This document shows positions 1,119-62,936 of a stretch of DNA of 64,000 nt, piece by piece. The position numbers and the translations under genes were made by a program. This stretch comes from Mustelus asterias (Eukaryota). Each line of letters opens with the position of its first letter. The first letter of the stretch is position 1. Below the pieces are notes generated by a model. It made no database searches. It was given only the letters and a program-made list of their open reading frames with translations, and had not been told where the DNA came from. The stretch covers positions 4,402,001 through 4,466,000 of the forward strand of contig NC_135830.1 of assembly GCF_964213995.1 (NCBI RefSeq), read 5' to 3'.

Positions 1119-3133
1119 CTAGGTACAGTCGGGCAATGTTATTGAGGTGAAAATAGTCTTGCTGATGATACAGATATCTTGCTGAAAACTGATCTTGTGG
1201 TGAAATATTTTGAGGTTAATGTGAACCAGGGTTCAGCCTCAGAGAATTCCCCGGGAGAGGGATGGAGCCAGTGGTTAGGGAGTAGAGTTTGTATCTGGAA
1301 TTGAAGACAATGGCTTTGTTCTTCAGCTTATCTGGATGTGGTTGCGGTGACAGAGACTTGGTTGAAAGAGGGACAGGACTGGCAACTGAATATTCCAGGT
1401 TACAAGTGTTTTAGGCGAGACAGAGGAGGGGCCAAAAGAGGTGGGGCAGTAGCAGTATGAGTTGGAGAGCATATTACAGCGGTGCAGAGGGAGGACAATT
1501 CAGAGGGGTCGTGTAACGAGTCACTGTGGGTGGAGCTCAGAAACAGGAAGGGCGCAGTCACTATGTTGGGGGTATACTACAGGCCCCCCAACAGCCCAAG
1601 GGAAGTGGAAGAACGGATATGTCAGGAGATACTGGATAGGTGCAGGAAAAATAGGGTTGTTGTAGTGGGAGACTTCAATTTCCCTGGTATAGACTGGAAA
1701 TCGCGTAGGGCTGGGAGTCTGAATGGGGAGGAATTTGTAAAATGCGTACAGGAAGGTTCTTTGGAACAATATGTAGATAGCCCGACTAGAGAGGGGGCTA
1801 TACTGGACCTAGTACTGGGGAATGAGCCTGGTCAGGTCTTCAAAGTTTCGGTAGGGGAACATGTGGCAAATAGTGACCACAATTCTGTTAGCTTTAGGAT
1901 AGTGATGGAAAAGGATGAGTGGTGTCCCAAGGGTAAGGTGTTGGATTGGGGCAAGGCTAATTTTAGTGGGATTAGGCAGAAATTGGCAGCTGTTGATTGG
2001 GAGACTGTTTGAGGGTAAATCCACATCTGGCATGTGGGAGTCTTTTAAGGAACAGTTGTTAGGGCTGCAGGATAGGCATGTGCCCGTAAAAAAGAAGAAT
2101 AGGAAGGGTAGGATTCGAGAACCGTGGATAACCAGGGAAATTGAGGGATTGGTCAAAAAGAAAAGAGAGGCGTACGTTAGGTCCAGGCAGCTAAAAACGG
2201 AGGGAGCTCTGGAGGAGTACAAAGAACGTAGAAAAGAACTCAAACGAGGAATTAGAAGGGCAAAAAGGGGTCACGAAATGTCCTTGGCAGACAGGATTAA
2301 GGAGAATCCCAAGGCATTTTATTCATACGTTAGGAACAAAAGGGTTGTCAGGGAAAAAATCGGACCTCTCGGGGACGAAAGTGGGGAATTATGCTTAGAA
2401 CCCGAAGAAGTAGGGGAGATCCTAAATGAATACTTTGCGTCGTTATTCACAAAGGAGAGGGATGTGTTGACTGGGAGTGTCTCGGAGGGGAGTGTTGACC
2501 CGTTAGAAAAAATCTCCATTACAAGGGAGGAAGTGTTAGGTTTTTTAGGGAATATAGAGACTGACAAATCCCCAGGGCCTGATGGAATCTATCCAAGGCT
2601 GCTCAGGGAGACGAGAGATGAAATCGCTGGGCCTCTGACGCAAATCTTTGTCTCGTCACTGGACACAGGTGAGGTCCCAGAAGATTGGAGGATAGCTAAT
2701 GTGGTCCCGTTAATTAAGAAGGGTAGGAAGGATAACCCGGGAAATTGTAGGCCGGTGAGCTTGACGTCCGTGGTCGGGAAGTTGTTGGAGAGGATTCTTA
2801 GAGATAGGATGTATGCGCATTTAGAAAGGAATAAACTCATTAACGATAGTCAGCGTGGTTTTGTGAGAGGAAGGTCATGCCTCACTAACCTGGTGGAGTT
2901 TTTTGAAGAAGTGACTAGAATGGTTGACGAGGGAAGGGCCGTGGATGTCGTCTATATGGACTTTAGTAAGGGGTTTGATAAAGTCCCTCATGGTAGGTTG
3001 GTGCAAAAGGTTGGATCTCATGGGATAAAGGGGGAGGTGGCTAGATGGGTGGAGAACTGGCTTGGTCACAGAAGACAGAGGGTGGTAGTGGAAGGGTCTT
3101 TTTCTGGCTGGATGCCTGTGACTAGTGGTGTTC

Positions 3134-3384
3134 ACAGTAAGAAGTTTAACAACACCAGGTTAAAGTCCAACAGGTTTATTTGGTAGCAAAAGCCACACAA
3201 GCTTTCGGAGCTCCAAGCCCCTTCTTCAGGTGAGTGTCCTGAAGAAATGTCACCTGAAGAAGGGGCTTGGAGCTCCGAAAGCTTGTGTGGCTTTTGGTAC
3301 CAAATAAACCTGTTGGATTTTAACCTGGTGTTGTTAAACTTCTTACTGTGTTTACCCAAGTCCAACGCCGGCATCTCCACAACA
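3134..3384 (-). mobile_element. Non-autonomous Penelope-derived fold-back element inserted in CR1 RT
   Basis: ~100-bp inverted arms (3133-3233 / 3250-3350) plus a single-copy tail. Imperfect 15-bp TSD TGACTAGTGGTGTTC (3119-3133) / TGACGAGTGATGTTC (3385-3399). Termini match the GIY-YIG-bearing element at 4688-5958. Confidence 0.8.
3251..3287 (+). ncRNA. Minimal type-I hammerhead ribozyme motif (mirror copy on minus strand 3196-3232)
   Basis: CAC-CTGAAGA-A-GGGGC ttgga GCTCC-GAAA-GCTT-GTG: core CUGANGA/GAAA, stems I and II, palindromic stem-III remnant. Confidence 0.7.
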
Positions 3385-4687
3385 TGACGAGTGATGTTCC
3401 ACAGGGCTCTGTATTGGGACCTCTGCTGTTTGTGATTTATATAAACGATCTGGAAGAAGGTGTAACTGGGGTGATCAGTAAATTTGCGGACGACACGAAA
3501 ATGGCTGGACTTGCAGATAGTGAGGAACATTGTCAGAGGCTACAGAAGGATATAGATAGGCTGGAAATTTGGGCAAAGAAATGGCAGATGGAGTTCAATC
3601 CAGATTAATGCGAAGTGATGCATTTTGGTAGAACTAACGTAGGGGGGAGCTATACGATAAATGGCAGAACCATAAAGGGTGTAGATACGCAGAGGGACCT
3701 GGGTGTGCAAGTCCACAGATCCTTGAAGGTGACGTCACAGGTGGAGAAGGTAGTGAATAAGGCATATAGCATGCTTGCCTTTATAGGATGGGGCATAGAG
3801 TATAATAGTTGGGGTCTGATGTTGCAGTTGTATAGAACGTTGGTTCGGCCGCATTTGGAATACTGCGTGCAGTTCTGGTCGCCACACTACCAGAAGTACG
3901 TGGAGGCTTTAGAGAGAGTACAGAGGAGGTTTACCAGGATGTTGCCTGGTATGGAGGAGCTTAGTTATGAGGAGAGATTGGGTAAACTGGGGTTGTTCTC
4001 CCTGGAAAGACGGAGGATGAGGGATGACCTAATAGACGTATATAAAATTATGAAAGGCATAGATAGGGTGAACGGTGGGAAGCTTTTTCCCAGGTCGGTG
4101 GTGACGTTCACGAGAGGTCATAGGTTCAAGGTGAGGCGGGGGGAGGTTTAACACGGATATCAGAAGGACGTATTTTACGCAGAGGGTGGTGGGGGCCTGG
4201 AATGCGCTGCCGGGCAAGGTGGTGGTGGAGGCGGACACACTGGGAACGTTTAAGACTTATCTAGATAGCCACATGAACGGAGTGGGAATGGAGGGATACA
4301 AAAGAATGGTCTAGTTTGGACCAGGGAGCGGCGCGGGCTTGGAGGGCCGAAGGGCCTGTTCCTGTGCTGTATTGTTCTTTGTTCTTTGTTCATATTTAAA
4401 TGAAGGAAATTTCTGCTCATCGCGTACTGGATGTCAGGACAGAGTGTGACTTGGAGAGGAATTTGTAGGTGATGGTGTTCACATTTCCTGCTATCCCAAT
4501 CCTTCAAGATGGTGGAGGGTGAGAGTTTTGGAGGTTCTGACAAAGTTCTGGTCAACTGGAGATGTGTAAAATCTGTCTCTCTGCTCACTGCCTCGTTCCC
4601 ACAAAATATCACATTCATTCTGCTCAATTTCACAACCTGTTTTTGTGGGTTGTCTCTAACGCCCTTTTTTCTGTTTGAAATATCCTT

Positions 4688-5958
4688 GATGTGGAGATGC
4701 CGGCGTTGGACTGGGGTAAGAAGTCTCACAACACCAGGTTAAAGTCCAACAGGTTTATTTGGTAGCAAATACCATAAGCTTTCGGAGCGCTGCCCCTTTG
4801 TCAGATGGAGTGGAAATCTGTTCTCCAACAGTGCACAGAGACACAGAAATCAAGTTACAGAATACTAATTAGAATGCAAATCTCTACAGCCAGCCAGGTC
4901 TTAAAGGTACAGATAATGTGGGTGGAGGGACCATTAAACACAGGTTAAAGAGATGTGTATTGTCTCCAGACAGAACAGCTAGTAAGATTCTGCAAGATCA
5001 GGGGGAAAGCTGTGGGGGTTACTGATAATGTGACATAAATCCAACATCCCGGTTTAGGCCGTCCTCATGTGTGCGAAAATTGGCTATCAGTTTCTGCTCA
5101 GCGACTCTGCGCTGTCGTGTGTCGTGAAGGCCGCCTTGGCTTGCCTTCAAACAACCACGCAACCTCAAACAGACCATTGTCCGCAGCAAACTACCCAGCC
5201 TTCAGGAGAACAGTGACCATGACACCACACAACCCTGCCACAGCAACCTCTGCAAGACATGCCGGATCATCGACACGGATGCCATCATCTCATGTGAGAA
5301 CACCATCTACCAGGTACACGGTACATACTCTTGCAACTCGGCCAACATTGTCTACCTGATACGCTGCAGGAAAGGATGTCCCGAGGCATGGTACATTGGG
5401 GAAACCATGCAGACGCTACGACAACGGATGAATGAACACCGCTCGACAATCACCAGGCAAGACTGTTCTCTTCCTGTGGGAGAGCACTTCAGCAGTCACG
5501 GGCATTCAGCCTTGGATCTTCAGGTAAGCGTTCTCCAAGGCGGCCTTCACGACACACGACAGCGCAGAGTCGCTGAGCAGAAACTGATAGCCAAGTTCCG
5601 CACACATGAGGACGGCCGAAACCGGGATGTTGGATTTATGTCACATTATCAGTAACCCCCACAGCTTGCCTCCTGATCTTGCAGAATCTTACTAGCTGTT
5701 CTGTCTGGAGACAATACACATCTCTTTAACCTGTGTTTAATGTTCCCTCCACCCACATTATCTGTACCTTTAAGACCTGGCTGGCTGTAGAGATTCGCAT
5801 TCTAATTAGTATTCTGTAACTTGATTTCTGTGTCTCTGTGCCCTGTTGGAGAACAGATTTTCACTCCATCTGACGAAGGGGCAGCGCTCCGAAAGCTTAT
5901 GGTATTTGCTACCAAATAAACCTGTTGGACTTTAACCTGGTGTTGTGAGACTTCTTAC
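4688..5958 (+). mobile_element. Penelope-like element 3' part (GIY-YIG endonuclease) with inverted pseudo-LTR
   Basis: 5143-5655 encodes AFKQPRNLKQ...C..C..C...NIVYLIRC...WYIGETMQTLRQRMNEH...GFMSHYQ*. Segment ~4717-5139 is the reverse complement of ~5535-5958. 12-bp TSD TGAAATATCCTT at 4676-4687 and 5959-5970. Confidence 0.9.
5866..5902 (+). ncRNA. Minimal hammerhead ribozyme motif in Penelope pseudo-LTR
   Basis: CCAT-CTGACGA-A-GGGGC agc GCTCC-GAAA-GCTT-ATGG. The inverted copy (4772-4808) has the core mutated to CTGACAA. Confidence 0.75.
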
Positions 5959-6084: not shown

Positions 6085-6951
6085 ATGGAAGGAAAAAGCA
6101 TCGTTGACAATGAAGAGAAACAGTGCATGTCTTCTGTGTGTGGACAAGACATCAGCCGATCTGGCCTGTCGAACCACAAGCACAGTCACACTGAGGAGAA
6201 GCTGTGGAAGTGTGGGGACTTTGGGAAGGAATTTGATTCTCCAGTTAGTCTAGAAATTCATCGGTGAATTCACACCGCGGAGAGGCCCTTCACCTGCTCC
6301 GAGTGTGGGAAAGGATTCAGTGCCTCATCCCACTTGCTGACACACCAGCACACTCACACTGGGCAGAGACCATTCACCTGCCCCATGTGTGGTAAGGGAT
6401 TCACTCAGTCATCTAATCTGCTGACACACCAGTGAATGCACGCTGGAGAGAGGCCATTCATCTGCTCTGTGTATGGGAAAAGATTCACTCAGTCATTGCC
6501 ATTCAAGGCACACAAACTAGTTCACACTGGGGAGAAGCCATTCACCTGTTCCGTGTGTAGAAAGGGATTCAATCGGTCATCAACGCTGCTAACACACCAG
6601 CGAGTTCACACTGATGAGAAACCTTTTAAATGCCCAGAGTATGGGAATTGCTATAAAAGCTCTGGGGAGCTGATGTCCCATCAACAGGTCCACACTGACG
6701 AGAAACCATTCAGATGCTCTCGCTGTGGGACTGGGTCCAGGCGATCATCTGACCTCACTGTGCACCAGCGCACTCACACTGGGGAGAAGCCGTTCTCATG
6801 CACCGTGTGTGGGAAGAGATTCAATCAGACATGTACCCTTCCAAGACACCAGCAAGTTCACACTGGGGAGAGCCCCTTCACCTGTTCTGTGTGCGGGAAG
6901 AGCTTTGGTCGGTTGTCCACTCTGCTGAGACACCAACAAGTTCACAAGTGA
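6085..6951 (+). pseudogene. C2H2 zinc-finger pseudogene A
   Basis: HTGEKPF-linked fingers, in-frame TGA at 6265 and 6433, several Cys replaced (CGDF, CSVY, CPEY). Acceptor-like TCCTTCACAG at ~5975. Confidence 0.85.
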
Positions 6952-7229
6952 CTGCAGTGATTGGATTTTGCTGTTAGTCACATCCTGGACTGAACTGGAG
7001 GAGCAGCAAGAGTGGGAGAGCCCAAATCTGATTGGAGGAGCTGTTTCTCACAGATTCTGTGTCTCCCACATTCAGGGCAAGTTTTCTTTCAATGGTCACC
7101 CCGGTGGTGAATTTTAATGGAAATTTTATGGGCTTTGATAACTGGAATTTGCTCTTTTCCACCATTTATATTATACCCTCTTCCAATTCTCAACATCTCC
7201 AACTAGGAAGTGCTGATTAATCCTTACTG

Positions 7230-11049: not shown

Positions 11050-11409
11050 ACTTTACAAGTTCAGGATTCAGACAAGCAGGAAATTTAGAGACAGTTTGAC
11101 CTGGTGGTCTAGTAGAGATGCTGATCAGATTGTCTCAATCTTGGTGACAAAGAAGCTCCATGAGCTCCTCACACTTGTTTTTGGAGGTGAGGATGAAGGA
11201 GACGGGGAGAGGGGGGGAAGCCCTTCAAATGGAACTAACATGTTTGAGGTATTAAAAGCATTCTTCACACTAAAAGTTTGTGTATTTGAGTTCCACCCAC
11301 AATACAAACCTTATAACTGGGCCAGTGTTTATTAACATGAGCAGAAACAGACACCAATGAAAATAGTTAGGACCTCGATGTGATAAACAGCAAAATCCAG
11401 TCATTGCAG

Positions 11410-12030
11410 TCACTTGTGAACACGCTGGTGTTTCAGCAGGTGAGGTAACTAAGTGAATCTTTCCCCACACTTGAAGCAGGTGAATGGCCTGTCCCCAGTG
11501 TGAATTCGCTGGTGCTTTACCAGGTTGGATGATTGACTGAATCCCTTCCCACACTCAGAGCAAGTGAACGGCCTCTCTCCGGTGTGAACTCGCTGGTGTC
11601 TCAGCAGGGTGGATGAATCAATAAATCCCTTCCCACAACTGGAGCAAGTGAATGGCTTCTCCCCACTGTGAACTCGCTGGTGTTTCAACAAGGTGAATGA
11701 CTAAGTGAATCCCTTCCCACACTCAGAGCAGGTGAACGGCCTCTATCCGGTGTGACCTCGCTGGTGTTTTAGCAGGTTGAATGATTTGAGTAAATCCCTT
11801 CCCACACTCTGGGCAGATAAATGGCCTCTCCCCGTTATGAATTCGCTGGCGTTTCAGCAGGTAGGATGGATCAGTGAATCCCTTTCCACACTCAGAACGG
11901 GTGAACGGCCTCTTTCCAATGTAAACTCGCTGGTGTTTTAGCAGGATAGAAGAGGTAGGGAATCCCTTTCCACAATCGAGGCATTTGAGTGGTCTCTCTC
12001 TAGTGTGAACTCTCTGGTGTGTCAGCACAC
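11410..12030 (-). pseudogene. C2H2 zinc-finger pseudogene B, 5'-truncated
   Basis: About 7 fingers in three frames (frameshifts near 11790 and 11700). The 5' side is replaced by SINE/LINE sequence. Confidence 0.85.
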
Positions 12031-12294
12031 TCCTTACAGAGTAGCCATACATGTCAGCCAGTCCAGATAAGGTTGGCAGATTTCCTTCCCTGAAGGGCAT
12101 CAGATGGGCTTTTATGACAATCAACAATAATTTCTAATCATCATTAGACATTTAATCCCAGACTTTCATCTAATTTATATTTCACCATTTGCCATGATAG
12201 GATTCGAACCCGGGTCCCCAGAGCATTACCCTGAGTCTCTGGGTCACTCGTCCTGTGACACTGCCACCACACCATTGCCTGCCCAATATGGAAA

Positions 12295-15603: not shown

Positions 15604-15789
15604 ACTGGAACACTGTCACTCGGGACTGGAACACTGTCACTCGGGACTGGAACACTGTCACTCGGGACTGGAACACCGTCACTCGGGACTGGAACACTGT
15701 CACTCGGGACTGGAACACTGTCACTCGGGACTGGAACACTGTCACTCGGGACTGGAACACTGTCACTCGGGACTGGAACACTGTCACTC
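15604..15789. repeat. 21-bp minisatellite (ACTGGAACACTGTCACTCGGG) x ~8.9
   Basis: Direct inspection; one substitution in one copy. Confidence 0.97.
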
Positions 15790-16229
15790 AGGTTGCACGG
15801 GCCTTGATGCTTTTCTGTTCACACCAATGATTCAAGCCAATTCAAACAGACAAACGTTTCTTCTCCCAGATTCAAACCGATGACATTCAGCTCCCATGAA
15901 TTGAGTGACTGTTAGATCTTGACATTTCTATCAGCAAATCATCCCCTTCTAATATCCTGTAAAAAGAATTTACAAAAGTCATCATTGTCAGAACAAGATA
16001 GAAATTCAGAACAGACATTTCTAGTTCGTGTGGAACATTGCAAAGGATGTCAATGTCTTTAAGAGAGAGAGAGACCTGGGCCAACCTTTCCAGAGTCTGC
16101 AGCCTCCCTGGATTCACTTCCTTTCCCTTCAGTTGCTGCAAGTCCCCAATTTCCCCCAGAATGAGAAAAGAAATGGAAAGGGGGAAACATTGATTTCCTC
16201 CCAGATGTTGCCCAGAGGAGGAAGTTTCA

Positions 16230-16680
16230 CTGAGTCTGAATCTGAATCAATCGAGCTTCCGCATTGTGACCTCCACAATGGAGCCTGCCTGAATGAGCCA
16301 ATAAGAATCAGTCTCTTCCGCAATGACGTCATGGGGTTCCAGTGCGCAGGCGCGGGCGCGCGGACACGGAAGCCCCGCCCCCTCCCATTGCTTCCCCCCT
16401 CCCCCTGAACTTCCACCAGCCAAGGTTTCCCGGCAACCGGCTGACGGCTCCGGCCAGAGCGAGAAGCCGCTCGGTGATCTCCTCCCCCCCGCCCCCCCGC
16501 CGGAACAGGACTGCGCATGTCCAAGGGAGAGGGGAAACTGCGCATGAGCGGGGTAGCCCGCCTCCTGACCTTCATGCTGGGGTGTTGACCAATGGGAAGA
16601 CTTGGAGGACCGGAAAGACTCTGGTCCTCCAGCCAATCAGGTCTTTGTGACACTCAGATTGAGCTGCAGAACAGGCTGAA
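16230..16680. promoter_or_regulatory. Bidirectional CpG-rich promoter between ZNF C (-) and ZNF D (+)
   Basis: CCAAT boxes (16298, 16589, 16633), GC boxes, TGACGTCA, TGCGCATG and CGGAAG motifs. Divergent copies of the AAACTTCCTCCT...CAACATCT exon-1 motif on both sides. Confidence 0.7.
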
Positions 16681-16853
16681 ACTTCCTCCTGTCGGAAGGG
16701 AGTTATTTTGATGACATGGATTACTCAAGCTTCATATCCCAGATGAAGCGAGGTACCTAAGTATGTTTTATTCTCCAAACAAGCGGTCAGATGACATCGA
16801 ACTCTGGCGGATAACTAATTTATCACTGATTTCCTTAAAAGAGGCCAACATCT

Positions 16854-16975
16854 AGCTCTTTCCTTTGTACTTTGATTTCTGTTCGGGCTGTTCCCCCTCC
16901 TTTTTGGGGAGCTGCCCCTTTTACTTTGTCCTGATTTAATCTGAGTTTGTTTATTTGGTTTGACCTGAAAAGAGG
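16854..16975 (+). mobile_element. Tx1 3'-end fragment in ZNF exon 1
   Basis: Near-identical to 20250-20365 and flanked by target copies CCAACATC. Confidence 0.85.
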
Positions 16976-17099
16976 CCAACATCCGTGAGTTGCAGAGCTT
17001 GCTCACTGGAGACGCCCGTTTTTGTTGAGAGCCATTGCTGTTTCTGCCAAAGTGCTCGAGTTCCAGCCAGAAGGAAGGAAGGCAGGAGGAGGAGGAGTC

Positions 17100-17228
17100 G
17101 CCTTTGCCTGCTTGCCGTCCGGCCTGTCTGCCTGCCGTCCGGCCTGTCTGCCTGCCGTCCGGCCTGTCTGCCTGCCGTCCGGCCTGCCTGCCTGCCTGCC
17201 GTCTGGCCTGCCTGCCTGCCGTCCGGCT
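17100..17228. repeat. 20-bp/(GCCT)n tandem repeat in Tx1 5' UTR
   Basis: GCCTGTCTGCCTGCCGTCCG units. Confidence 0.9.
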
Positions 17229-17844
17229 ACTGGAGGGTGCTCTCTCCCTGGAGGGAGAGAGGGAGAGGAGACACAGAGAGAGTTTCTCTTTGTTGTTTTT
17301 TTCCATCTACAGGAGGGAGGACAGCGCGACTTAAACATATCAACATCTAGGGACTGAGTGGTTGGGCTGGTGCCCTCATCATCAGAAGGTCGGTGCCTGA
17401 AAGGGAGGGAGGGGGAAGAATATTAAGACTGATTTCCATCTACGGGGGGGGGGGGGGGGGGGGTGTGAAGACACTCTGGACTTGAACTGTTGTGCCCAAG
17501 AGGGCTGAAGGAGCAAAGTCCCCCTACCCACTGCTGCTGCCCCCAACACCGGCACCGCCTCCCTTCTGACTGGGGCACCGGCTCTCCTCAGTGCCCTGAC
17601 CCTTGTCCTCCCTCCTGCTCCTCCAACCTCCTCTAGCTCCAGGGAGTGAGCACCTGAACCCCCACCCACCTACCCCACCCTCCCTTATTTCCCTCTCTGA
17701 CCCCGCCTTGCCACCTGGGCAGAGAGGCCCATTATCTATTCCTCCCTACTACCCGACACCTCTATCCCTTCCCATGGACACACATATACGCCCTGCCGTG
17801 CATCCGGGCAGCCTCAGAGTGGATGTAGCACTCGTCAAGCAACC

Positions 17845-18528
17845 ATGGCGACCTCGCCAGCGTCGCCGGTGGCAGGGCCTTCTCGGCCCACCTATGCGGG
17901 TGTGGTGGCGGCCGGAGCCCCCGCCGCTCCCAAGGCCCTGCCGCCATTCTCCCTAATCACGCGGCAGCTCGGGGTGAAGTGCTACGCCCACCCCGACATG
18001 TCTATCGAGGCCTGCGTCAAGGCAATGGCTGGGGTTGTCGGCCCCTCAGCCATTGTCGTGGCCTCCAAGATGTACGGCCGGGCCGTATTTTTCCTGAAGG
18101 CCGAGCGGGCGGTCCACCTCGCCCTGGAGAGGGGGCTCACGGTGGGCGGGACGTTCCTGGCGGTGGACCCTTTGGAGGCGACCGCTCATAAGATCATCAT
18201 CTCGAACGTCCCGCCCTTCCTACCGAGTGAGCTCCTCCTCCCCCACCTCCATCTACTGGGGGAGGTCAGGTCCGGGGTGCAGCCGATCCCGCTCGGCCTT
18301 AGGGACCCCTCCCTCCGACACGTTTACTCCTTCCGGCGCCAGGTATTTGTCCGCCTGGCCCGGGAGGAGGTCCTGGAGGGAGGTTTTGGCATCCCCTTCG
18401 AGGGAGTCACCTACCCGGTCTTCTGGTCCGCGGACGGTGTGCGGTGCCATGCCTGTAAGGAGGCGGGGCACTTTAAAAAGAACTGCCCCGTCTCCAAGGC
18501 CGCCGACCACCAACCCAATGGGGGGTAG
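17845..18528 (+). CDS. Tx1 ORF1 (gag-like, CCHC knuckle), truncated by the internal deletion
   Basis: ASKMYGRAVFFL, KIIISNVPPFL, HVYSFRRQVFV, CHACKEAGHFKKNC. Confidence 0.8.
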   Translation: MATSPASPVAGPSRPTYAGVVAAGAPAAPKALPPFSLITRQLGVKCYAHPDMSIEACVKAMAGVVGPSAIVVASKMYGRAVFFLKAERAVHLALERGLTVGGTFLAVDPLEATAHKIIISNVPPFLPSELLLPHLHLLGEVRSGVQPIPLGLRDPSLRHVYSFRRQVFVRLAREEVLEGGFGIPFEGVTYPVFWSADGVRCHACKEAGHFKKNCPVSKAADHQPNGG

Positions 18529-21500
18529 GCGACCCCAAGCCAGCACAACCGACACCTCCCGGGGACCCCCTACCGGAGGAGCTCAGGCCTTTCACCTGGA
18601 GCAGGACCGACCTCCTCTACTTGGGGGCCCATCTCTGCCCAGCCGAGGAATCCTGGCCGGTGAACTGGCGGGAGCTGGAGGCCAAAGTCTCCGCCCGCCT
18701 GAATCGCTGGACAGGACTGCTCCGAGTGCTGTCCTACGGGGCGCGAGCTCGCGTCATAAACCAGCTGGTCGCCTCCATGCTGTGGTACCGGCTGGTCCCT
18801 TTGACCCCTCCCCCTGGCTTTGTCACCGATATCCAGAGTACCCTCGTGCGGTTCTTCTGGGGCAATCGACTGCACTGGGTCCCTGCTGCGGTCCTGTATC
18901 TCCCGCTTGAGGAGGGCGGACAAGGTCTGGTGTGCCTTCGCACTCAGATAGCGACCTTCCGCCTCCAGGCCCTGCAGAGGTACCTTTACGTTGAGCCCCC
19001 TCCACGATGGTGTGCCATGGCGACGTATTTCTTCCGCCAGTGGCACGGCCTCAATTATGACGTGCAGCTCCTGCATATCGAACTGGGGCGTGCTTCGACC
19101 GCCCTGCAGGAGTTGCCCGTCTTTTACCAGGACCTCCTCACTGTCTGGAACAAGGTCGCCTCGTGACGCAGCTCTCCCCCGTCAGGAGTAGCTCCTCGTG
19201 CGAGAGCCGCTGCTGAGGAATCCGCTCCTCCAGCCGTATGACTTCAGGTGGCTGGCGGAGAGGGGGGCTGTGGACGCCGGGGTGACCAGAATCGGGGACG
19301 TGCTCGATGGCGGAGGAGCGGGCTGGATGAGTCCCCGCGTGCTGGCTGAGCGCGTGGGGACGACCGTCCGGCGCGCGGCCAAAGCCATCCTAGACCTTAG
19401 GACGGCCGTGCTCGGCCCCGAAACTGCACGCAAACCCAAGGCAGCGCAGGCGTGCGGTGGGACCCCGCCCGAGCATTCCCCTGCTCGGACAGAATTCCAC
19501 ATTGGCCCAAAACCTCAACCCCCCCACCCTGGGTGAGGTGCCCCACAGCCTGAGCCGCCTCGCGGAAATGTCCTCCGTGCCTTTTTCTACCGCGCGGAGG
19601 CGTCTCCTGTGCGGGCTGCTGCTGCACACCTTCCACTACCGCCTCCTCGCCTGTCGCCCGGATACACCTTGGCGGGCCTTGTTGCCGCCGGGCGGCGGAG
19701 GTCCCCGCTGGAGGTCCCTCTACGGAGGGATCTCCCCCAATTACGTCGGGGACCTGGGGTGGAGGGTGATGCATGCAGCAGTTCCGCACAAACGTAGGAT
19801 TCACTGGTTCACGGGCTCCGAAGACTGCCCTTTCTGTGGCCTTGTGGAGTCCGTGGACCATGTCTATGTTTTGTGTCTTAGGCTGCACTCCCTTTATGTT
19901 TTCCTAAAGAACCTTTTATTGATGTTTTGTTTGCACTTCAGTCCCACGCTCCTGATCTACAGACACCCGGTGCGGAGAGGTGAGGGTCGGGATGGCGACC
20001 TCCTCGTGAACCTGCTCCTGGGCCTGGCGAAACGCGCCATTTACCGGTCCAGGCAGCGGGCGATCGAGGGGGCCGTCCATCCTGACTGTCTGCCCCTCTA
20101 CCGCGGCTACGTTCGCGGCCAGGTGTCCCTGGAGAGGGAGCATGCGGTGTCCACGGGCGAGGTTGACGCCTTCCGCGCCCGTTGGGCACCGCAGGGGTTG
20201 GGGTGCGTTATCGACCCTGATAATCACATTATGATTTGATGTTCTTAAGTTTCCTTTGTACTTTGATTTTTGTTCGGGCTGTTCCCCCTCCTTTTGGGGA
20301 GCTGCCCCTTTTACTTTGTCCTGATTTAACTTGAGTTTGTTTATTTGGTTTGACCTAAAAAGAGGCCAACATTCGTGAGTAAAACACTTTCTTTTCTCCC
20401 CCTTTCCATTTCTTTTCTCATTCTGGGGGAAATTGGGGACTTGCAGCAACTGAAGGGAAAGGAAGTGAATCCAGGGAGGCTGCAGACTCTGGAAAGGTTG
20501 GCCCAGGTCTCTCTCTCTCTCTTAAAGACATTGACATCCTTTGCTCCCTCAGCTTGACACATTTATTTGTCTGGCTGAAAAGGATGGTCTCATTCCTAAT
20601 CTTCACAATTAAAGGGGTGGTTTCCATCAGGAGATGGCTGACATTTAAAGGGACACTAATATAGGACAGAGATATGATTAAGTATATTTATAATTATATC
20701 TCGCTGTGTAACATAGTACTGTTGCTATGTTATATATTTCCAGTCACCTCTTCACACACAGTTGTTAGTCTTGGATTTCTCTTCCACAGGGATCAGTGGA
20801 GGCTGAGGGTCATTGAATATATTCCAGGGTCAGTTGGACTGATTTTTGATTCATAAAGGAGTCCAACGTTATGGGGAACAGGTCGGAGAATGCAGATAAA
20901 GTTAAGGTGAGGGGGGATTTCCTCACGCAAGGATGTGGTAAGGTTTTGGAATTCTGCATCCCAGAGGACTGTGGAGCCTCAGCCATGTAGAATTTTCAAG
21001 CTGGAGATTGATAAGTTTTGAGATATTGAAGACATTGAACGACGTGGGGGATAGCGTGGGAAATAGCGCTGAGGTAGATCGGCCAATTCTCAATGAATGG
21101 TTGAGGCAGTTCGATGGGCTGAATGGCCGACTGCAGCTCCTACTTGTTATGGTCCCTGTGTCCAGGACAGGAAGCAGTGAGCATAGATCTGTCAATCAGC
21201 CTCAATCAGCACCTTCAGGAGAATTGGGAGGGTGAATATTAGATACAGCAGAGTGAGAATGGAGGGAGAGTGAGTGGGATGGAGATTCACAGCTTTTGGG
21301 GAATGAGAGGAAAGAATGTTCCATAGAAACTAGAATTGTCTGTTCTGAATTTTTATCCTGTACTGACACTGATGACTTATGTAAATTTCTTTTACAGGAT
21401 ATTGAAAAAAGAATCACAGGCAGGAATCTCAAATGTCACATCTCGATCTGACAGAGTCATATTCCTTGGGACCTGAATATCATTGGCCTTTGAATCTAGA

Positions 21501-21744: not shown

Positions 21745-22815
21745 ATGGAGAAACCATGGAAATGTGGGGACTGTGGGAAGAGATATAAAGTTCCATCTCG
21801 GCTGGAAATTCATCGACGCAGTCACACTGGGGAGAGACCGTTCATCTGCTCTCAGTGTGGGAGGGGATTCACTTGGTTATCCACCCTGCAAAGACACCAG
21901 CGAGTTCACACTGGGGAGAGGCCATTCACCTGCTCTCTGTGTGGGAAGGGATTCACTCAGTCATCCGGTCTGCGGGCACACCAGCGAGTTCACACTGGAG
22001 AGAGGCCATTCACCTGCACCCTGTGTGGGAAGGGTTTCATTCAGTCATCCCACCTACTGAATCACAAAGCCACTCACACCAATGAGAGACGCTTTAAATG
22101 CTCTGATTGTGGGAGTGGCTTCAAAACCTCTGGTGAACTGGTGTTCCACCAGCGCATTCACACTGAGGAGAGACCGTTCAGTTGCTCTCACTGCACAAAG
22201 AGGTTTAGAAGGTCATCCCACCTGCAGACACACCAGCGAGTTCACACCGGGGAGAGGCCGTTCACCTGCACCGTATGTGGGAAGGGGTTCACACAGTTAT
22301 CCAGCCTGTGGGCACACCAGCAAGTTCACACTGGGGAGAGGCCATTTACCTGCTCTGTGTGTGGGAAGGGATTCACTCTGTCATCGAACCTGCTGAAACA
22401 CAAAGTCACTCACACCCAGGAGAGACCCTTTAAATGCCCTGACTGTGGGAGCGGATTCAAACGTGCTTCGGATCTGAGGGACCACGAGCGAGTTCACACT
22501 GGGGAGAGACCGTTCAGCTGCTCTGTGTGTGGGAAGAGATTCACTCAGTTATCCCACCTATTGAATCATAAAATCACTCACAGCAATGAGAGACCCTTTG
22601 AATGTTCTGACTGTGGGGGTGGCTTCAAAAGCTCTCAGGATCTGATGTCCCACCAGCGCACTCACACTGAGGAGAGACCATTCAGCTGCTCTCTTTGTGC
22701 AAAGAGGTTTAAATGGTCATCCGCACTGCGGAGACACCAGCGAGTTCACACTGGGGAGAGACATTCCCCTGCTCTGTGTGTGGAAAGGGATTCACTCAGT
22801 TATCCAACCTGCTGA
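21745..22815 (+). CDS. Tandem C2H2 zinc-finger protein D (12 fingers, 13th frameshifted; 356 aa)
   Basis: [10 protein letters not shown] start, acceptor TTTTACAG at ~21397, conserved family 3' UTR. Confidence 0.85.
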
Positions 22816-36590: not shown

Positions 36591-36663
36591 AAGAAAGGAA
36601 AGAATGTTCCATGAAACACTAGAATTGTCTGTTTTGAATTTCTACCCTGTGCTGACAGTGATT

Positions 36664-37329
36664 CCCCGCTGGAGGTCCCTCTACGGAGGGATCTCCCCCA
36701 ATTCCGTCGGGGACCTGGGGTGGAGGGTGATGCATGCAGCAGTTCCGCACAACCGTAGGATTCACTGGTTCACGGGCTCCGAAGACTGCCCTTTCTGCGG
36801 CCTTGTGGAGTCCGTGGACCATGTCTATGTTGTGTGTCTTAGGCTGCACTCCCTTTATGTTTTCCTGAAGAACCTTTTATTGATGTTCTGTTTGCACTTC
36901 AGTCCCACGCTCCTGATCTACGGACACCCGGTGCGGAGAGGGGAGGGTCGGGATGGCGACCTCCTCGTGAACCTGCTCCTGGGCCTGGCGAAACGCGCCA
37001 TTTACCGGTCCAGGCTGCGGGCGATCGAGGGGGCCGTCCATCCTGACTGTCTTCCCCTCTACCGCGGCTACGTTCGCGGCGGTGTCCCTGGAGAGGGAGC
37101 ATGCGGTGTCCACGGGCGAGGTTGACGCTTTCCGCGCCCGCTGGGCACCGCAGGGGTTGGGGTGCATTATTGACCCCAATAATCACATTTTAATTTGATG
37201 TTTTTAAGTTTCCTTTGTACTTTGATTTCTGTTCGGGCTATTCCCCCTCCTTTTTGGGGAGCTGCCCCTTTTACTTTGTCCTGATTTAATCTGAGTTTGT
37301 TTACTTGGTTTGGTTTGACCTAAAAAGAA
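36664..37329 (+). mobile_element. Tx1 5'-truncated copy just upstream of the ZNF F splice acceptor
   Basis: Near-identical to 19703-20363; 10-bp TSD GACAGTGATT (36654-36663 / 37330-37339). Confidence 0.92.
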
Positions 37330-46996: not shown

Positions 46997-48402
46997 TCAT
47001 TGTAACATCATGTTGGCCTGTTTGGGTGATCACCAAAGGTCAAAAGGGGAACTGAAAGGGTTAATAATCACATAAGCTGCTAAGTTCTCAAAGACAGAAG
47101 CTCTGAGAAACCAGATGCCTCAGAACTAGGCGGCCTCCAGATAATAGTCAAGGACCACAAAACTTTGAATTGCAAGGGAGGCTCCAATCATGCAGTGTGC
47201 GCACAAGAATTCAATTGAACCATTTGCAGCTGCAGCTTATGAGTGCCCATTAGAACAAGGGACAATGAGCAAGGGAGTTTGATACACCACTAGTCAGACA
47301 TCTATCTATCGTACTCGTGCCTGAAAGTTCATAGATAAGTACAGAAAATACATGTTCGATGACATAATTAAGTAGATGCTATAGGGTCTGTTCATTCCTT
47401 AGAATAGACGTAGACCGCACTGGTCCAAAGTTGAACTCCATTTATTGAGCATCATTTAAAAATTAACACGTTACAGAAAGCAAAAAAATGTTTACTTGAG
47501 AGAGAGAGGGACCAGCAGAAGCTCGTCCTGATACAGATTCGATCCAAACCTTGCACAGGATCAGCTTCTGTCGGGGTCCATTCATTCCTTAGAATAGACA
47601 TGGGTAGCACTTGGTACGAATTTAAGATGATTTTCTTTCTTGAATAAAACTTAAAATTAATACGACAGAAGTGGAGAGAGAGAGAAATGTTGGAGACTGG
47701 CTTCACAGCCAGGCCCTGTACAGACCTGAACTCAAACCTCACACTGGGCTGAACAAACTAGACAGATAACTTTTACTGCAATATATGAATTCTTCCCCGT
47801 GTTATTGAAATTGCTGGTACAAACTGTGTCCCTAAATTCCATAAACAATTGGCAGCTGTGGCCATGAAAAATGTTGTTTATGAAAAGCATTGTTTCTGCT
47901 AACATTGTATTTTCAAAGAATGCAGTCAATTTCTAAACTCGTCCCAGAATTCCCAGCTGAGTTTTAAAATGTGACCAAGTTCGCTTTAAAGCTCAGCCTA
48001 AGTAGTTACATAGACAGGAATATCTTAAAATTAAGTCTTTTAACTGAAGCAAACCATACAAAGGATCCCAGAAATGTGCACAAATGATAATTGGACAGCT
48101 ATACTCACACATGATGTAATCCTAACTATTAGTTGAGTGGAGATGGATAATCTCTGAACAAATATACAGATTTGATTGGTATTTGCTAATTCCTTGTGAC
48201 TGGATCTGAAAGTATAACTGTCTGTGTAATGTATTATTCAGGCCCCTCTGGTGGGCCACCAGCTGGACTACCAGATTATTAGCTGTAGCTTTGAAAAACT
48301 CCAAAACTCTTTGTCTGGGCACTCAAAGGGGACAGCCCTGAAAATAGTTCAGTCCTGGATGTGATTAACAGCAACAATGACAGCAGAATCCAACCCCTGT
48401 CA

Positions 48403-49486
48403 TCACTTGTGAACTCACTGGGGTGTCTGCGGGTGGGATGCATCACAAAATCCCTTCCCACACTGAGAGCAGGAGAATGGCCTCTCCTCAGTGTGGACTT
48501 GAAGGTGTCTCTGCAGGTAGGTTGAATCATTGAATCTCTTCTCACACTGAGAGCAGGTGAACGGCCTCTCCCCAGTGTGGACTTGAAGGTGTCTCTGCAG
48601 GTAGGTTGAATCATTGAATCCCTTCTCACACTGAGAGCAGGTGAATGGCCTCTCCCCAGTGTGAATGCGCTGGTGGGACATCAACTCCAAAGAAGTTTTG
48701 AAGCCACTCCCACAGTCAGAGCATTTAAAGCGTCTCTCATTGCTGTGAGTGATTTTGTCTCAGCAGATTAGATAACTCAGTGAATCCCTTCCCACACTCA
48801 GAGCAGCAGAATGGTCTCTCCTCAGAATGAATATGCTGGTGAACCAACATTGACAGAGTTTTTGAAATCCCTCCCACAGTCAGCATTGAAAGGGCCTCTC
48901 ACTAGTGTGAGTGACATTATGTCTCCGAAGGCTGGTTAACCGAGTGAATCCCTTCCCACACTCAGAGCAGGTGAATGGCTTCTCCCCAATGTGAACTCGC
49001 TGGTGCTTCTGCAGGCTGGAGAACTGACTGAATCCCATTTCACACTGAGGGCGGCACGGTAGCACAGTGGTTAGCACTGCTGCTTCACAGCTCCAGGGTC
49101 CCGGGTTCGATTCCCGGCTCGGGTCACTGTCTGTGTGGAGTTTGCACATTCTCCTCGTGTCTGCGTGGGTTTCCTCCGGGTGCTCTGGTTTCCTCCCACA
49201 GTCCAAAGATGTGCGGGTTAGGTTGATTGGCCAGGTTAAAAATTGCCCCTTAGAGTCCTGGGATGCGTAGGTTAGAGGGATTAGCAGGTAAATATATGGG
49301 GGTAGGGCCTGGGTGGGATTGTGGTCGGTGCAGACTCGATGGGCCGAATGGCCTCCTTCTGCACTGTAGGGTTTCTATGATTTCTATGAATGGCTTCTCC
49401 CCAGTGTGACTGCGTCGATGAACTTCAAGCGCAGATGGGAACTGGAATCCTTTCCTACAGTCCCCACATTTCCACAGTTTTTTCAT
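48403..49486 (-). pseudogene. C2H2 zinc-finger pseudogene G, disrupted by a SINE and frameshifts
   Basis: Starts MKKLWKCGDC, HE1 insertion in finger 2, indels at 48700-48900, premature stop in the last finger. Confidence 0.88.
49049..49387 (+). mobile_element. HE1-type V-SINE inside ZNF G (another partial copy at 49742-49946, minus strand)
   Basis: Full-length copy. A few target bases are missing and there is no clear TSD. Confidence 0.92.
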
Positions 49487-50720: not shown

Positions 50721-50755
50721 CTGAGTTTGTTTATTTGGTTTGACCTAATAAGAGG
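50721..50755 (+). mobile_element. 35-bp Tx1 3' terminus in ZNF H exon 1
   Basis: CTGAGTTTGTTTATTTGGTTTGACCTAATAAGAGG followed by CCAACATCTGTGAGT. Confidence 0.85.
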
Positions 50756-60175: not shown

Positions 60176-60196
60176 CTTCCTGTCTCCAACATCTGT

Positions 60197-60242
60197 CCTG
60201 ACTTAATCTGAGTTTGTTTATTTGGTTTGACCTAAAAAGAGG
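60197..60242 (+). mobile_element. 46-bp Tx1 3' terminus in ZNF I exon 1
   Basis: Flanked by 10-bp TSD CAACATCTGT (60187-60196 / 60243-60252). Confidence 0.9.
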
Positions 60243-61837
60243 CAACATCTGTGAGTAAAAGACTTTATTTTCTCCTTCTTTCCATTTCTTTTCTCATTCT
60301 GGGGGGAAATTGGGGACTTGCAGCTACTGAAGGAAAATAAGTGAATCCAGGGAGGGTGCAGACTCTGGAAAGGTTGGCCCAGGTCTCTCTCTCTATTTTA
60401 AATGCATTGACATCCTTTGCTCCCTCAGCTTGACACATTGATTTGTCTGGCTAAAATGATGATCTCTTTCCGAATGTTATTAAATTAAAGGACTGGTTTC
60501 TCCAGGAGATGGCTGACATTTAAGGGGACAGTAAATTAATATAGGACAGAGATATATCTAGTGTTATTATATGATACAGATTAGATATATTATTTGTAGT
60601 TCTGTAATGAAATACATTTATGATTATTTCTAGTTTAGTAATATAATACTGTCGCTATGCTGTATGTTTCCAGTCAGAGTCATTACAGCACAGAAGGAGT
60701 TCATTCAGTAACTCGAGTCCATGCCGACTCTCGTTTCAGCTTCATCTCACCTTGGGCTGAATTTGAGATGCCGACCTGGGAGAAAAGGTTTTCCCTCCTG
60801 TCCCCTCTAAACTGTCCACCAGTCACTTTAAATCTATGTGAAAAGCAAAATACTGCAGATGCTGCAATCTGAACAAAAAAACAGTGAAAATGCTGGAAAA
60901 TCTCAGCAGGTCTGACAGCATCTGTGGCGAGAGAATAGAACCAACGTTAAAGTCTGGTTGACCCTTCATCAGACTCTTGAGCTCTGGCATTTTCTGTGTT
61001 AAACCTACGCTCCCTGGTAATCGCACCTTCTGCTATGGGAAACATGTCAGTTCTGTTTACCCTTTCTCGACCCTTATAATTTTAAAGTACTGGTTACATT
61101 CAGTCAGTCCCAGTCCCCCTCCATATCCCCTTTGCAGGTAAATTTGTCAGTTTATTTCCTTCTGGTGCCATCTACCTCCACTTCCACATGCTGCTGAAAT
61201 CAAGTTCTTCCGCACATCCCCATATATCCAGTAACACAGTACTGTGTATTACATCGGTTTTTAGTCCAATAAACATATATAAAATCAGTGAGCATGGATC
61301 TATTGGTCAGCAAGAATTGGTCCCTTCAGGAGAATTGGGAGGGTGAATATTAGATACAGCAGAGTGAGAATGGAGGGAGTGTGTGTGGGATGGAGATTTA
61401 TGATTTTTGGGGAATGAGAGAGGAAAGAATGTTCCATCAAAACTAGAATTGTCTGTTTTGAATTTCTATCCAGTGCTGACACTGATGTATTTTGTAAACT
61501 TCTTTTACAGGATATCAGAAGGCGAGGATTGACAGATGAAAGACAACATCTGACAGAGTCTCTTAATTCATTGGGACCTGAATATCATCGGCCTTTGAAT
61601 CTAGAAGGAGAAATGTTTCTCTGTTCTGTCTGCTTCAAAAGACTTTAATCGTTGGTGTGACTTGAAAAGCACTGAGACACACACACACCCGAGTGAGAGT
61701 GTTCCAGTGCACTGAGTGTGGAAAGAGCTTTAACCTGTTACACAGCCTGAAAATACATCACAGCATTCACAGCGGGAGAGATTGTACCCGTGTTCTGTGT
61801 GTGGATGAGGCTTCAACTGATCGTCAAACCTGGAGAT

Positions 61838-61986
61838 CTTTTTCTGCACCTTAGCTATAACTAACACTACATTCTACATCCTCTCCTTTCCTTCTCTGTG
61901 TATAGTATGCTTTGTCTGTATAGCGCGCAAGAAACAATACTTTCCATTGCATACTAATACATGTGACAATAATGAATCAAATCAAA
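61838..61986 (+). mobile_element. LINE 3' tail fragment (Rex1/Babar-like) in the ZNF I leader
   Basis: Absent from paralogous leaders; ends GTGACAATAATGAATCAAATCAAA. Confidence 0.5.
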
Positions 61987-62008
61987 GAGTCACAAGGACA
62001 TCCGCACC

Positions 62009-62936
62009 ATGAAGAAGCCGTGGAAATGTGGAGACTGAGGGTGGGGATTCCAGTTCCCATCTGCACTGGAAACCCATCGGCGCAGTCACACCGGGGAGAG
62101 ACCGTTCACCTGCCCTCAGTCTGGAAATGGATTCACTGAGTTAAACATCCTGCGGATGCACCAGCGAGTTCACACTGGAGAGAGGCCGTACAAATGCACA
62201 GAGTGTGGGAAGGAATTCACTCAGTTATCCAGCCAGCTGAAACACCAGGTAATTCACACCGGGGAGAAACCGTTCACCTGCTCTGAACGTGGGAAGAGAT
62301 TTACTCAGTCTTCCAGCCTGCTGAGACATCAGCGAGTTCACACTGGGGAGAGGCCATTCACCTACCCTGAGTGTGGAAAGGGATTCACTGAATCATCAAA
62401 CCTGCTAACACACAAGCGAGTCCGCACCAGAGAGTGACCTTTTATCTGTTCCGTGTGTGGGAAAGGATTCACTCAGTTCATCAACCTGCAGATTCACCAG
62501 CGAGTTCACACCAGGGAGAGACCTTTCACTTACTCTGAGTGCGCGAAGGGATTTACTGAGCCATCAAACTTACTGATACACAAGCGGGTTCACACAGGAG
62601 AGAGGCCCTTTGGCTGCTCTGCTTTTGCGAAAGGATTCAGGGATGTTTTCACCCTGTGGAACCACCAGCGGGCTCACACTGGGGGTGAGGCCATTCACCT
62701 GCCCTGTGTGTGGGAAGGGATTCACTCTGCGATCAAACATGCTGAGACACCGGCGAGCTCATACTGGAGAGAGGCCGTTCATCTGCTCTGACTGTGGGAA
62801 GAAATTTATTGATTCATCTCATCTGCTGACACACCAGCGAGTTCACACTGGGGAGAGGCCGTTCACCTGCTCTCAGTGTGGGAAGGGATTCACTCAGTCA
62901 TCCCAACTGCTGAGACACCAGCGAGTTTGCAAGTGA
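62009..62936 (+). pseudogene. C2H2 zinc-finger pseudogene I (11 fingers)
   Basis: MKKPWKCGD* early stop, second stop at 62435, frameshift near 62685, lost Cys residues. Confidence 0.9.

Follow-up and report, generated by a model that had tools for sequence, protein, structure and literature searches.

The window analysed here, 64,000 nucleotides of Mustelus asterias (contig NC_135830.1, positions 4,402,001 to 4,466,000, forward strand), is a cluster of C2H2 zinc-finger (ZNF) genes within a 3.68-Gb genome. One of these genes, ZNF D, carries between its promoter and its coding exon a copy of a long interspersed nuclear element (LINE) of the Tx1 clade, and the junction of that element with the first splice donor of the gene is our subject (Table 1). 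The open reading frame (ORF) of ZNF D encodes 12 canonical C2H2 fingers from the ATG at 21745, as a preliminary description of the sequence had held, and finger 13 is out of frame near 22763; at this frameshift, contigs of four of four probable-RNA runs, probably representing paralogues, have one G more than the window. The element is bracketed by a 15-bp target-site duplication, CCAACATCCGTGAGT on the left and CCAACATTCGTGAGT on the right, identical at 14 of 15 positions and ending in GTGAGT, and the left donor directly adjoins the element's first base, both features being as first described. The two copies share a C immediately 5' of GT, where 14 of 14 paralogues with the same exon-1 allele and no long copy have T, as expected for a true duplication. 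Private bases tell the donors apart (left CTGAAAAGAGGCCAACATCC, right CTAAAAAGAGGCCAACATTC) within a near-identical surrounding context; the exonic side of the left donor (TCC) has zero match to U1, and the right copy is one match better. As geometry the rebuilt donor is genuine; any gain for the host is putative and, when loci are compared, minor.

Table 1. Features of the ZNF D locus, in window coordinates
Feature	Position	Strand	Basis and remarks
CpG-rich CCAAT-box ZNF promoter, shared with divergent ZNF gene	16250..16700	+	GC 62%, CpG observed/expected 0.65
Putative exon 1 of ZNF D (non-coding), extended by two older inserts	16645..16984	+	Homology to empty paralogues and spliced retrocopies
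Insert of 150 bp at the same target, with the AAAAGAGG tail of the element at its end	16695..16845	+	23 near-full matches, on ZNF-cluster contigs
9-bp target copy and short 5'-truncated element copy (~117 nt)	16846..16975	+	Same allele without the long copy in 14/14 paralogues
Left copy of the target-site duplication, holding the rebuilt donor (GTGAGT, 16985-16990)	16976..16990	+	Sequence
Tx1-clade LINE, 5'-intact, internally deleted by ~3.7 kb, non-autonomous	16991..20365	+	Sequence comparison; size 3.4 kb
Strong candidate splice acceptor in the element's 5' untranslated region	17283..17312	+	Second of 116 YAG sites by pyrimidine count
Truncated ORF1; CCHC knuckle in the family, motif visible in window ORF1	17848..18528	+	Sequence
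Broken C-terminal part of ORF2 (Tx1 ORF2 residues 742-1292)	18564..20239	+	Protein match
Right target copy, original donor GTGAGT at 20375	20366..20380	+	Followed by the host intron start common to empty paralogues
Host intron, acceptors ending at 20789, 21165 and 21397	20381..21397	+	Homologues of 20789 and 21397 used in L203 and L202; 21165 from scan only
ZNF D coding region, 12 intact C2H2 fingers and a frameshifted 13th	21745..22815	+	Sequence

The target is a genuine splice donor in this gene family, which numbers over 500 copies. Empty paralogues read CTCCAACATCT followed by GTGAGTAAAACAC at the target, and two intronless retrocopies on other chromosomes join exon 1 to an exon of the 21398 type (L202) or of the 20790 type (L203), exon 1 ending exactly in ATCT or AGCT at these junctions. 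These junctions establish use of the donor for the gene family; at 16985 its use is only predicted. The genuine retrocopies came from a promoter-anchored search; three matches to a first retrocopy pattern were due to chance.

The inserted element belongs to the Tx1 clade by protein similarity. The ORF2 of the family aligns with Xenopus Tx1 ORF2 (YTX2_XENLA) at 53% identity over 97% of the 840-aa query (E=4e-275), compared with 30-40% identity for the weakest full-length matches; the closest named element proteins are those of horn shark and stingray (62-65%). In one relative (L084), ORF2 comprises an apurinic/apyrimidinic (AP)-type endonuclease (PF03372) followed by a reverse transcriptase (PF00078), and ORF1 contains a CCHC knuckle (PF00098, E=0.00096, just under the curated cut-off). 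Compared with L085, a relative of 6,805 nt, the window copy is missing positions 1548-5235, and the deletion junction is unique in the genome; the copy consequently has no endonuclease and little reverse transcriptase, matching only residues 742-1292 of Tx1 ORF2. This deletion of 3.7 kb, together with stops and frameshifts, leaves neither ORF intact, and the copy is a dead passenger, no source of new copies. Its description as a long copy needs correction in that, though 5'-intact, it is internally deleted and not full length. It is 95.7% identical to the nearest relative among those fetched and carries 15 private substitutions in 1,793 columns. The filled target gave 0 matches in a metagenome scan.

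Preference for the donor target extends across the genome. The 19-nt target has 547 exact sites (reversed control, 0), which among the 100 places listed are clustered on three contigs, and it was occupied in 15 of the 30 exact sites examined; here and below, sampled loci are those listed first, mostly on C1, C2, C12 and C23, rather than random draws. A donor-blind search anchored on the upstream promoter exon returned 323 matches, and the first 30 comprised 16 empty sites, 11 with an insert, two retrocopies and one non-ZNF exon, giving an insert in 11 of 27 exon-1 sites, with GTGAGT kept in 16/16 of the empty ones. Conversely, the exact 15-mer directly follows 33 of 1,178 element 3' ends (one pattern), many of them segmental duplicates, where 0.0001 would be expected by chance. 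The 3' junction at ZNF sites is fixed 9 nt before GT. Both hallmarks of the Tx1 clade, target preference and a fixed 3' junction, are present, the preference being loose. The first base after the tail tracks element subfamily (8/10 versus 0/20, p=8e-6), an indication that read-through bases of the RNA serve in priming.

Other insertions illustrate the range of these targets. Also targeted, at 5 of 30 loci (L150, L161-L164), is a second class of ZNF promoter in divergent orientation (GGGCAACATCTGTGAGG); its representative in the window (16190-16230, minus strand) is empty and lacks GT. Two further ZNF genes in the window have 3' fragments of ~30 and ~50 nt at the same donor (50721-50750 and 60194-60243), and a 665-nt truncated copy (36663-37328) lies just 5' of a ZNF coding-exon acceptor with a 10-bp flanking duplication. 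At L185 and L186 (C23:3519008 and 3697334) the same donor has received an unrelated, apparently non-coding family of 1.2-1.9-kb inserts with a different tail. Tandem arrangements include at least three long copies behind a single ZNF promoter at L209 (C23:4001686 onward), and stacks of related elements at non-ZNF targets on C19 (16.6-17.3 Mb; L320-L324, L331) and C12 (27.14 Mb; L318). No Rfam or tRNA match was found around the copies on C19, C12 and C2.

Duplication of the donor appears to follow from the position of the cut. Among dispersed copies with both ends in view (n=76, after nine loci that were ZNF-site copies or tandem repeats had been set aside beforehand), 14 of the 21 with a duplication show 13-16 bp, and this ordinary stagger accounts for the copied donor when the first cut falls 9 nt upstream of it. 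ZNF-site copies of just 12-23 nt (L118, L127, L132) have the same 15-bp duplication, which makes it a property of the cut and not of long copies; the contrast between long and short copies drawn earlier fails on this point. Other short ZNF-site copies show a 9-11-bp duplication or a target deletion. The tiny copies also exclude a contribution of the final GT by the element, since their duplication likewise ends at GTGAGT. Whether 5'-complete copies consistently include GTGAGT was a question raised in the preliminary description, and the duplication usually, though not always, extends to the donor: among 22 5'-intact lineages at ZNF sites (evident duplicates collapsed by eye), GTGAGT or GTGGGT lies at or near the 5' end in 12, four have the weaker GTGAGG or GTGACT, and six have no consensus donor, a second respect in which the contrast of long and short copies fails.

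Placement of the element beside a CpG-rich promoter had been described as well, at a distance of some 350 bp. The CpG-rich stretch is indeed upstream, and the putative start near 16645, to which the 5' end of retrocopy L202 maps by homology, lies 340 nt from the donor; this distance results from a pair of older inserts piled up at that site, and otherwise the start-to-donor interval is 60-85 nt. The first of these, the 150-bp insert, is probably a template-switch product, its 3' 80 nt matching a tRNA-Glu gene trailer (partial match beside tRNA-Glu; L187:2953-3034). The allele is common to at least 23 ZNF loci, and a donor scan places two candidate donors within it, at 16753 and 16761. In the short element copy that follows, the 3' half (16860-16975) is nearer to a young dispersed subfamily than to the paralogues' short copy, with about six differences, which suggests that it was either replaced by a later copy or co-transferred with the long one.

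Promoter borrowing, also proposed at the outset, gains support from a copy on C2. There, a 5'-complete element at a non-ZNF site is preceded by a decayed donor and, ahead of that, ~75 nt of ZNF exon 1, and is followed at its 3' end by a dispersed-type site; its flanks match at 13 of 18 positions, its leader starts within ~6 nt of the start of retrocopy L203, and a span of 30 kb showed neither a ZNF promoter nor a ZNF intron or coding exon. The simplest reading is that an unspliced RNA from a ZNF promoter was retrotransposed whole. A second line of evidence comes from a subfamily headed by tRNA-Val (7 of 27 sites), in which a degenerate inner target copy lies between head and element. On the host promoter tree, which is short and of unsettled bootstrap, these tRNA-headed copies require 8 changes for 10 loci (shuffled mean 8.7), at least five of the eight being forced by well-supported branches; this scatter argues that the element carried the extra leader along. 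Variants at the left junction that are missing from the right flank also recur at several loci. Overall, these comparisons indicate that the element likely uses the ZNF gene promoter. The tRNA-Val head itself (L198:1555-1627, L206, L208, L211, L184) has anticodon GAC in five of five ARAGORN calls. This anticodon is unusual in eukaryotes, and may stem from reverse transcription of an inosine-edited AAC tRNA.

Taken together, we hold with moderate confidence that a Tx1-clade LINE, dead in the window copy, inserts 9 nt 5' of the ZNF donor, likely with use of the ZNF promoter, and that its ordinary duplication of 14-15 bp happens to copy the donor, probably sparing only some hosts. New copies would arise from unspliced RNA started at the ZNF promoter; the endonuclease would nick before CCAACATC, priming may be assisted by a small number of read-through bases at the 3' end of the RNA, and annealing to exon 1, the mechanism proposed for R2, could join the cDNA end. 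Where the left donor survives, it would be in competition with both the right donor and the acceptor inside the element, such that some normal ZNF mRNA might still be made, ZNF D being possibly one survivor.

Several observations weigh against parts of this account. The target specificity is loose, with 29 of the 30 first-listed 3' ends lying off the ZNF target, at sites beginning (C/G/A)CAA, and 55 of the 76 dispersed copies have no duplication at all. The C2 evidence comes from one old event, represented by two copies, in which the flank match has decayed; on a promoter tree, labels can be scattered by gene conversion. Near-5'-intact relatives with no exon 1 occupy non-ZNF sites on C12 and on C19 (there as six copies of a single arrangement), which leaves room for an internal promoter, and the tRNA head could itself act as one. 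These copies and the one on C2 also dispose of the notion, true of the first 12 places seen, that all 5'-intact copies are at ZNF sites. Finally, GTGAGT is kept in the leader of 4 of 6 tRNA-headed copies with an inner target copy, in flanks that drift, which hints at selection rather than accident.

Such selection is the essence of an unlikely alternative, close to what was first proposed, in which selection preserves the cut geometry and the leader donor because splicing then removes long copies and the host remains functional. It draws on the precise span of the duplication (-9 to +5/+6 of the donor), on the 16 of 22 5'-intact lineages with a GT of either strength described above, and on the unrelated insert family, which has the same 15-bp duplication in 2/2 copies. 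The fate of the hosts is difficult to reconcile with it. We scored a host as intact when its first downstream ZNF exon held at least seven fingers in one open frame; L209, L285 and the L177 group were set aside because the insert was mixed or the host exon lay out of reach. Intact hosts made up 6 of 23 long-insert loci versus 14 of 19 empty sites (p=0.005), one of the 14 having a frameshift before its nine fingers, and 6/18 versus 14/17 once loci whose ZNF exon was not reached were removed (p=0.006). Retention of the donor made no difference to long-insert hosts (4/11 intact with the donor kept, 2/8 with it lost, p=1; 4/12 on adding L326, whose donor is kept and host broken), in a comparison of low power to detect a partial rescue. 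The same stagger, moreover, occurs where a donor is absent. The claim of damage avoidance is thus not borne out: with most long-copy hosts broken, insertion is probably not harmless. Either long insertions as a rule destroy the host gene, or those that last are chiefly in hosts already dead, and in both cases they are not neutralised. The companion claim, that short copies do little harm within a non-coding exon, fared better. Short-insert hosts were intact in 4 of 7 loci, as were 12 of 13 paralogues with the window locus's two short inserts, these 13 being duplicates rather than independent cases.

What remains on the side of rescue are four intact hosts with a kept donor (the window locus, L087, L208 and L186), among them ZNF D, whose 12 fingers have a neutral survival probability of 0.01-0.29 depending on the assumed age. 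Under this decay model the survival of ZNF D is a hint of rescue and nothing firmer; its ratio of nonsynonymous to synonymous differences (pN/pS), 0.58-0.69 against six distant paralogues, is uninformative on the time since insertion.

Competition between splice sites bears on a further, distinctly improbable alternative, in which the rebuilt donor serves the element: exon 1 would be spliced to the acceptor at 17312, placing a short leader before ORF1 and diverting transcripts from ZNF. This would account for host decay, and the acceptor, as picked out by a crude consensus-based scan for donors and acceptors, has a textbook polypyrimidine tract and CAG, kept in 14 of the 19 copies aligned there. 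It is, however, lost in the other 5 of 19, no clear branch point was found, and a retrotransposed junction of exon 1 with 17313 gave 0 matches (one exact degenerate pattern). The element holds 27 ATGs, and an mRNA retaining it would thus hardly translate ZNF. A look-up listed no RNA run containing this stretch, and four probable-RNA runs of other organisms yielded only finger-to-finger joints among the 15 displayed of 993, no evidence either way. Least probable of all is that long copies merely accumulate in dead or dispensable ZNF genes, the donor copy being inconsequential and ZNF D recent or lucky, for although broken hosts are in strong excess, ZNF D has one frameshift and its open ORF is unremarkable at the young ages (neutral survival probability 0.08-0.29) compatible with its element's few private substitutions, the exon-1 leader on C2 stays unexplained, requiring active ZNF promoters to drive element RNA, and broken hosts among empty sites (5/19) make prior death common without covering all loci.

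Elsewhere in the window, broken ZNF genes with 2-4 fingers per open frame are found at 6100-7000, 11300-12050, 48300-48800 and 61300-62900, and about nine tandem copies of a 20-bp unit (15609-15790) adjoin the start of a minus-strand ZNF ORF.

Comparison with known systems places this family in familiar company, with a departure in its target. Like Xenopus Tx1L and Tx2L, it has a CCHC ORF1, an ORF2 with AP-type endonuclease and reverse transcriptase, and a preference for a multicopy target. Tx1L makes a target duplication of 23 bp; unlike Tx1, the present family takes as its target the exon-1/intron-1 junction of protein-coding genes transcribed by RNA polymerase II (Pol II), with duplications of 13-16 bp. 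The Tx1 target, according to the available text, is the Tx1D DNA transposon (PMC4494074). Keno, Kibi, Koshi and the crocodilian Tx1-Mar/SINEU-3 are described in the same text as combining target preference with tandem stacking at a regenerated target, duplications and truncations (PMC4494074), and all of these, including target truncations, are shared by our family. Targets of the clade listed there are U2, U5, 5S, microsatellites, satellites and transposons, and the available text names no protein-coding gene (PMC4494074).

In R2, according to the text available, host-promoter co-transcription leaves upstream host sequence on the 5' end of the RNA, which is thought to anneal at the target (PMC6895275). 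The proposed likeness is that our element's RNA may begin in host sequence, a reading supported by one 5'-transduction event and the inherited leaders; R2 differs in its restriction-like endonuclease, its 28S rDNA (Pol I) target and its ribozyme release. Reptile Utopia, in the accessible account, shows weakened specificity, with many off-target copies that have short target-like junctions and rare duplications (PMC4640811). It shares this looseness with our family and differs in its NeSL clade, restriction-like endonuclease and U2 target. Introners can co-opt a splice site from the target-site duplication, as stated in the accessible part of PMC11282704. They are mostly DNA transposons that make new introns in exons, as far as that text goes, whereas our element copies a donor and lengthens an intron that were already there, and the preserved host genes that characterise introners are few (the 6 of 23 given above). 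CRE1, SLACS and NeSL elements offer a similar junction geometry, inserting into a short 5' exon beside the splice donor of a multicopy gene. Their targets are spliced-leader exons, by the available text of PMC4640811. They belong to other clades with another endonuclease, and their target is a trans-splicing RNA gene. Across the accessible parts of eight sources (PMC4494074, PMC4640811, PMC6895275, PMC6719617, PMC11282704, PMC8869645, PMC3747384, PMC8455134), the targets named are rRNA, snRNA, tRNA and spliced-leader genes, microsatellites, telomeres and transposons. No Tx1 element targeting ZNF genes or another protein-coding family was found in the literature covered, Repbase, most subscription journals and supplements being outside that coverage. 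The family is a Tx1-clade member whose kind of target is apparently undescribed and whose promoter use is apparently R2-like.

A LINE whose niche is a Pol II protein-coding gene family, with the first donor hit in 40-50% of the genes sampled, would represent a novel type of targeting, and the occupied ZNF sites offer many natural replicates of whether a duplicated donor rescues a gene. For biochemical work, the family also supplies an endonuclease of the AP type whose target is defined. C2H2 ZNF genes are widely thought to repress transposons, and the present association links a retrotransposon directly to their birth and death. One might speculate further, with considerable doubt, that the lineage lives off ZNF promoters and keeps the donor under selection, so that splicing chooses between host mRNA and element RNA, and that in doing so it may drive the turnover of ZNF genes.

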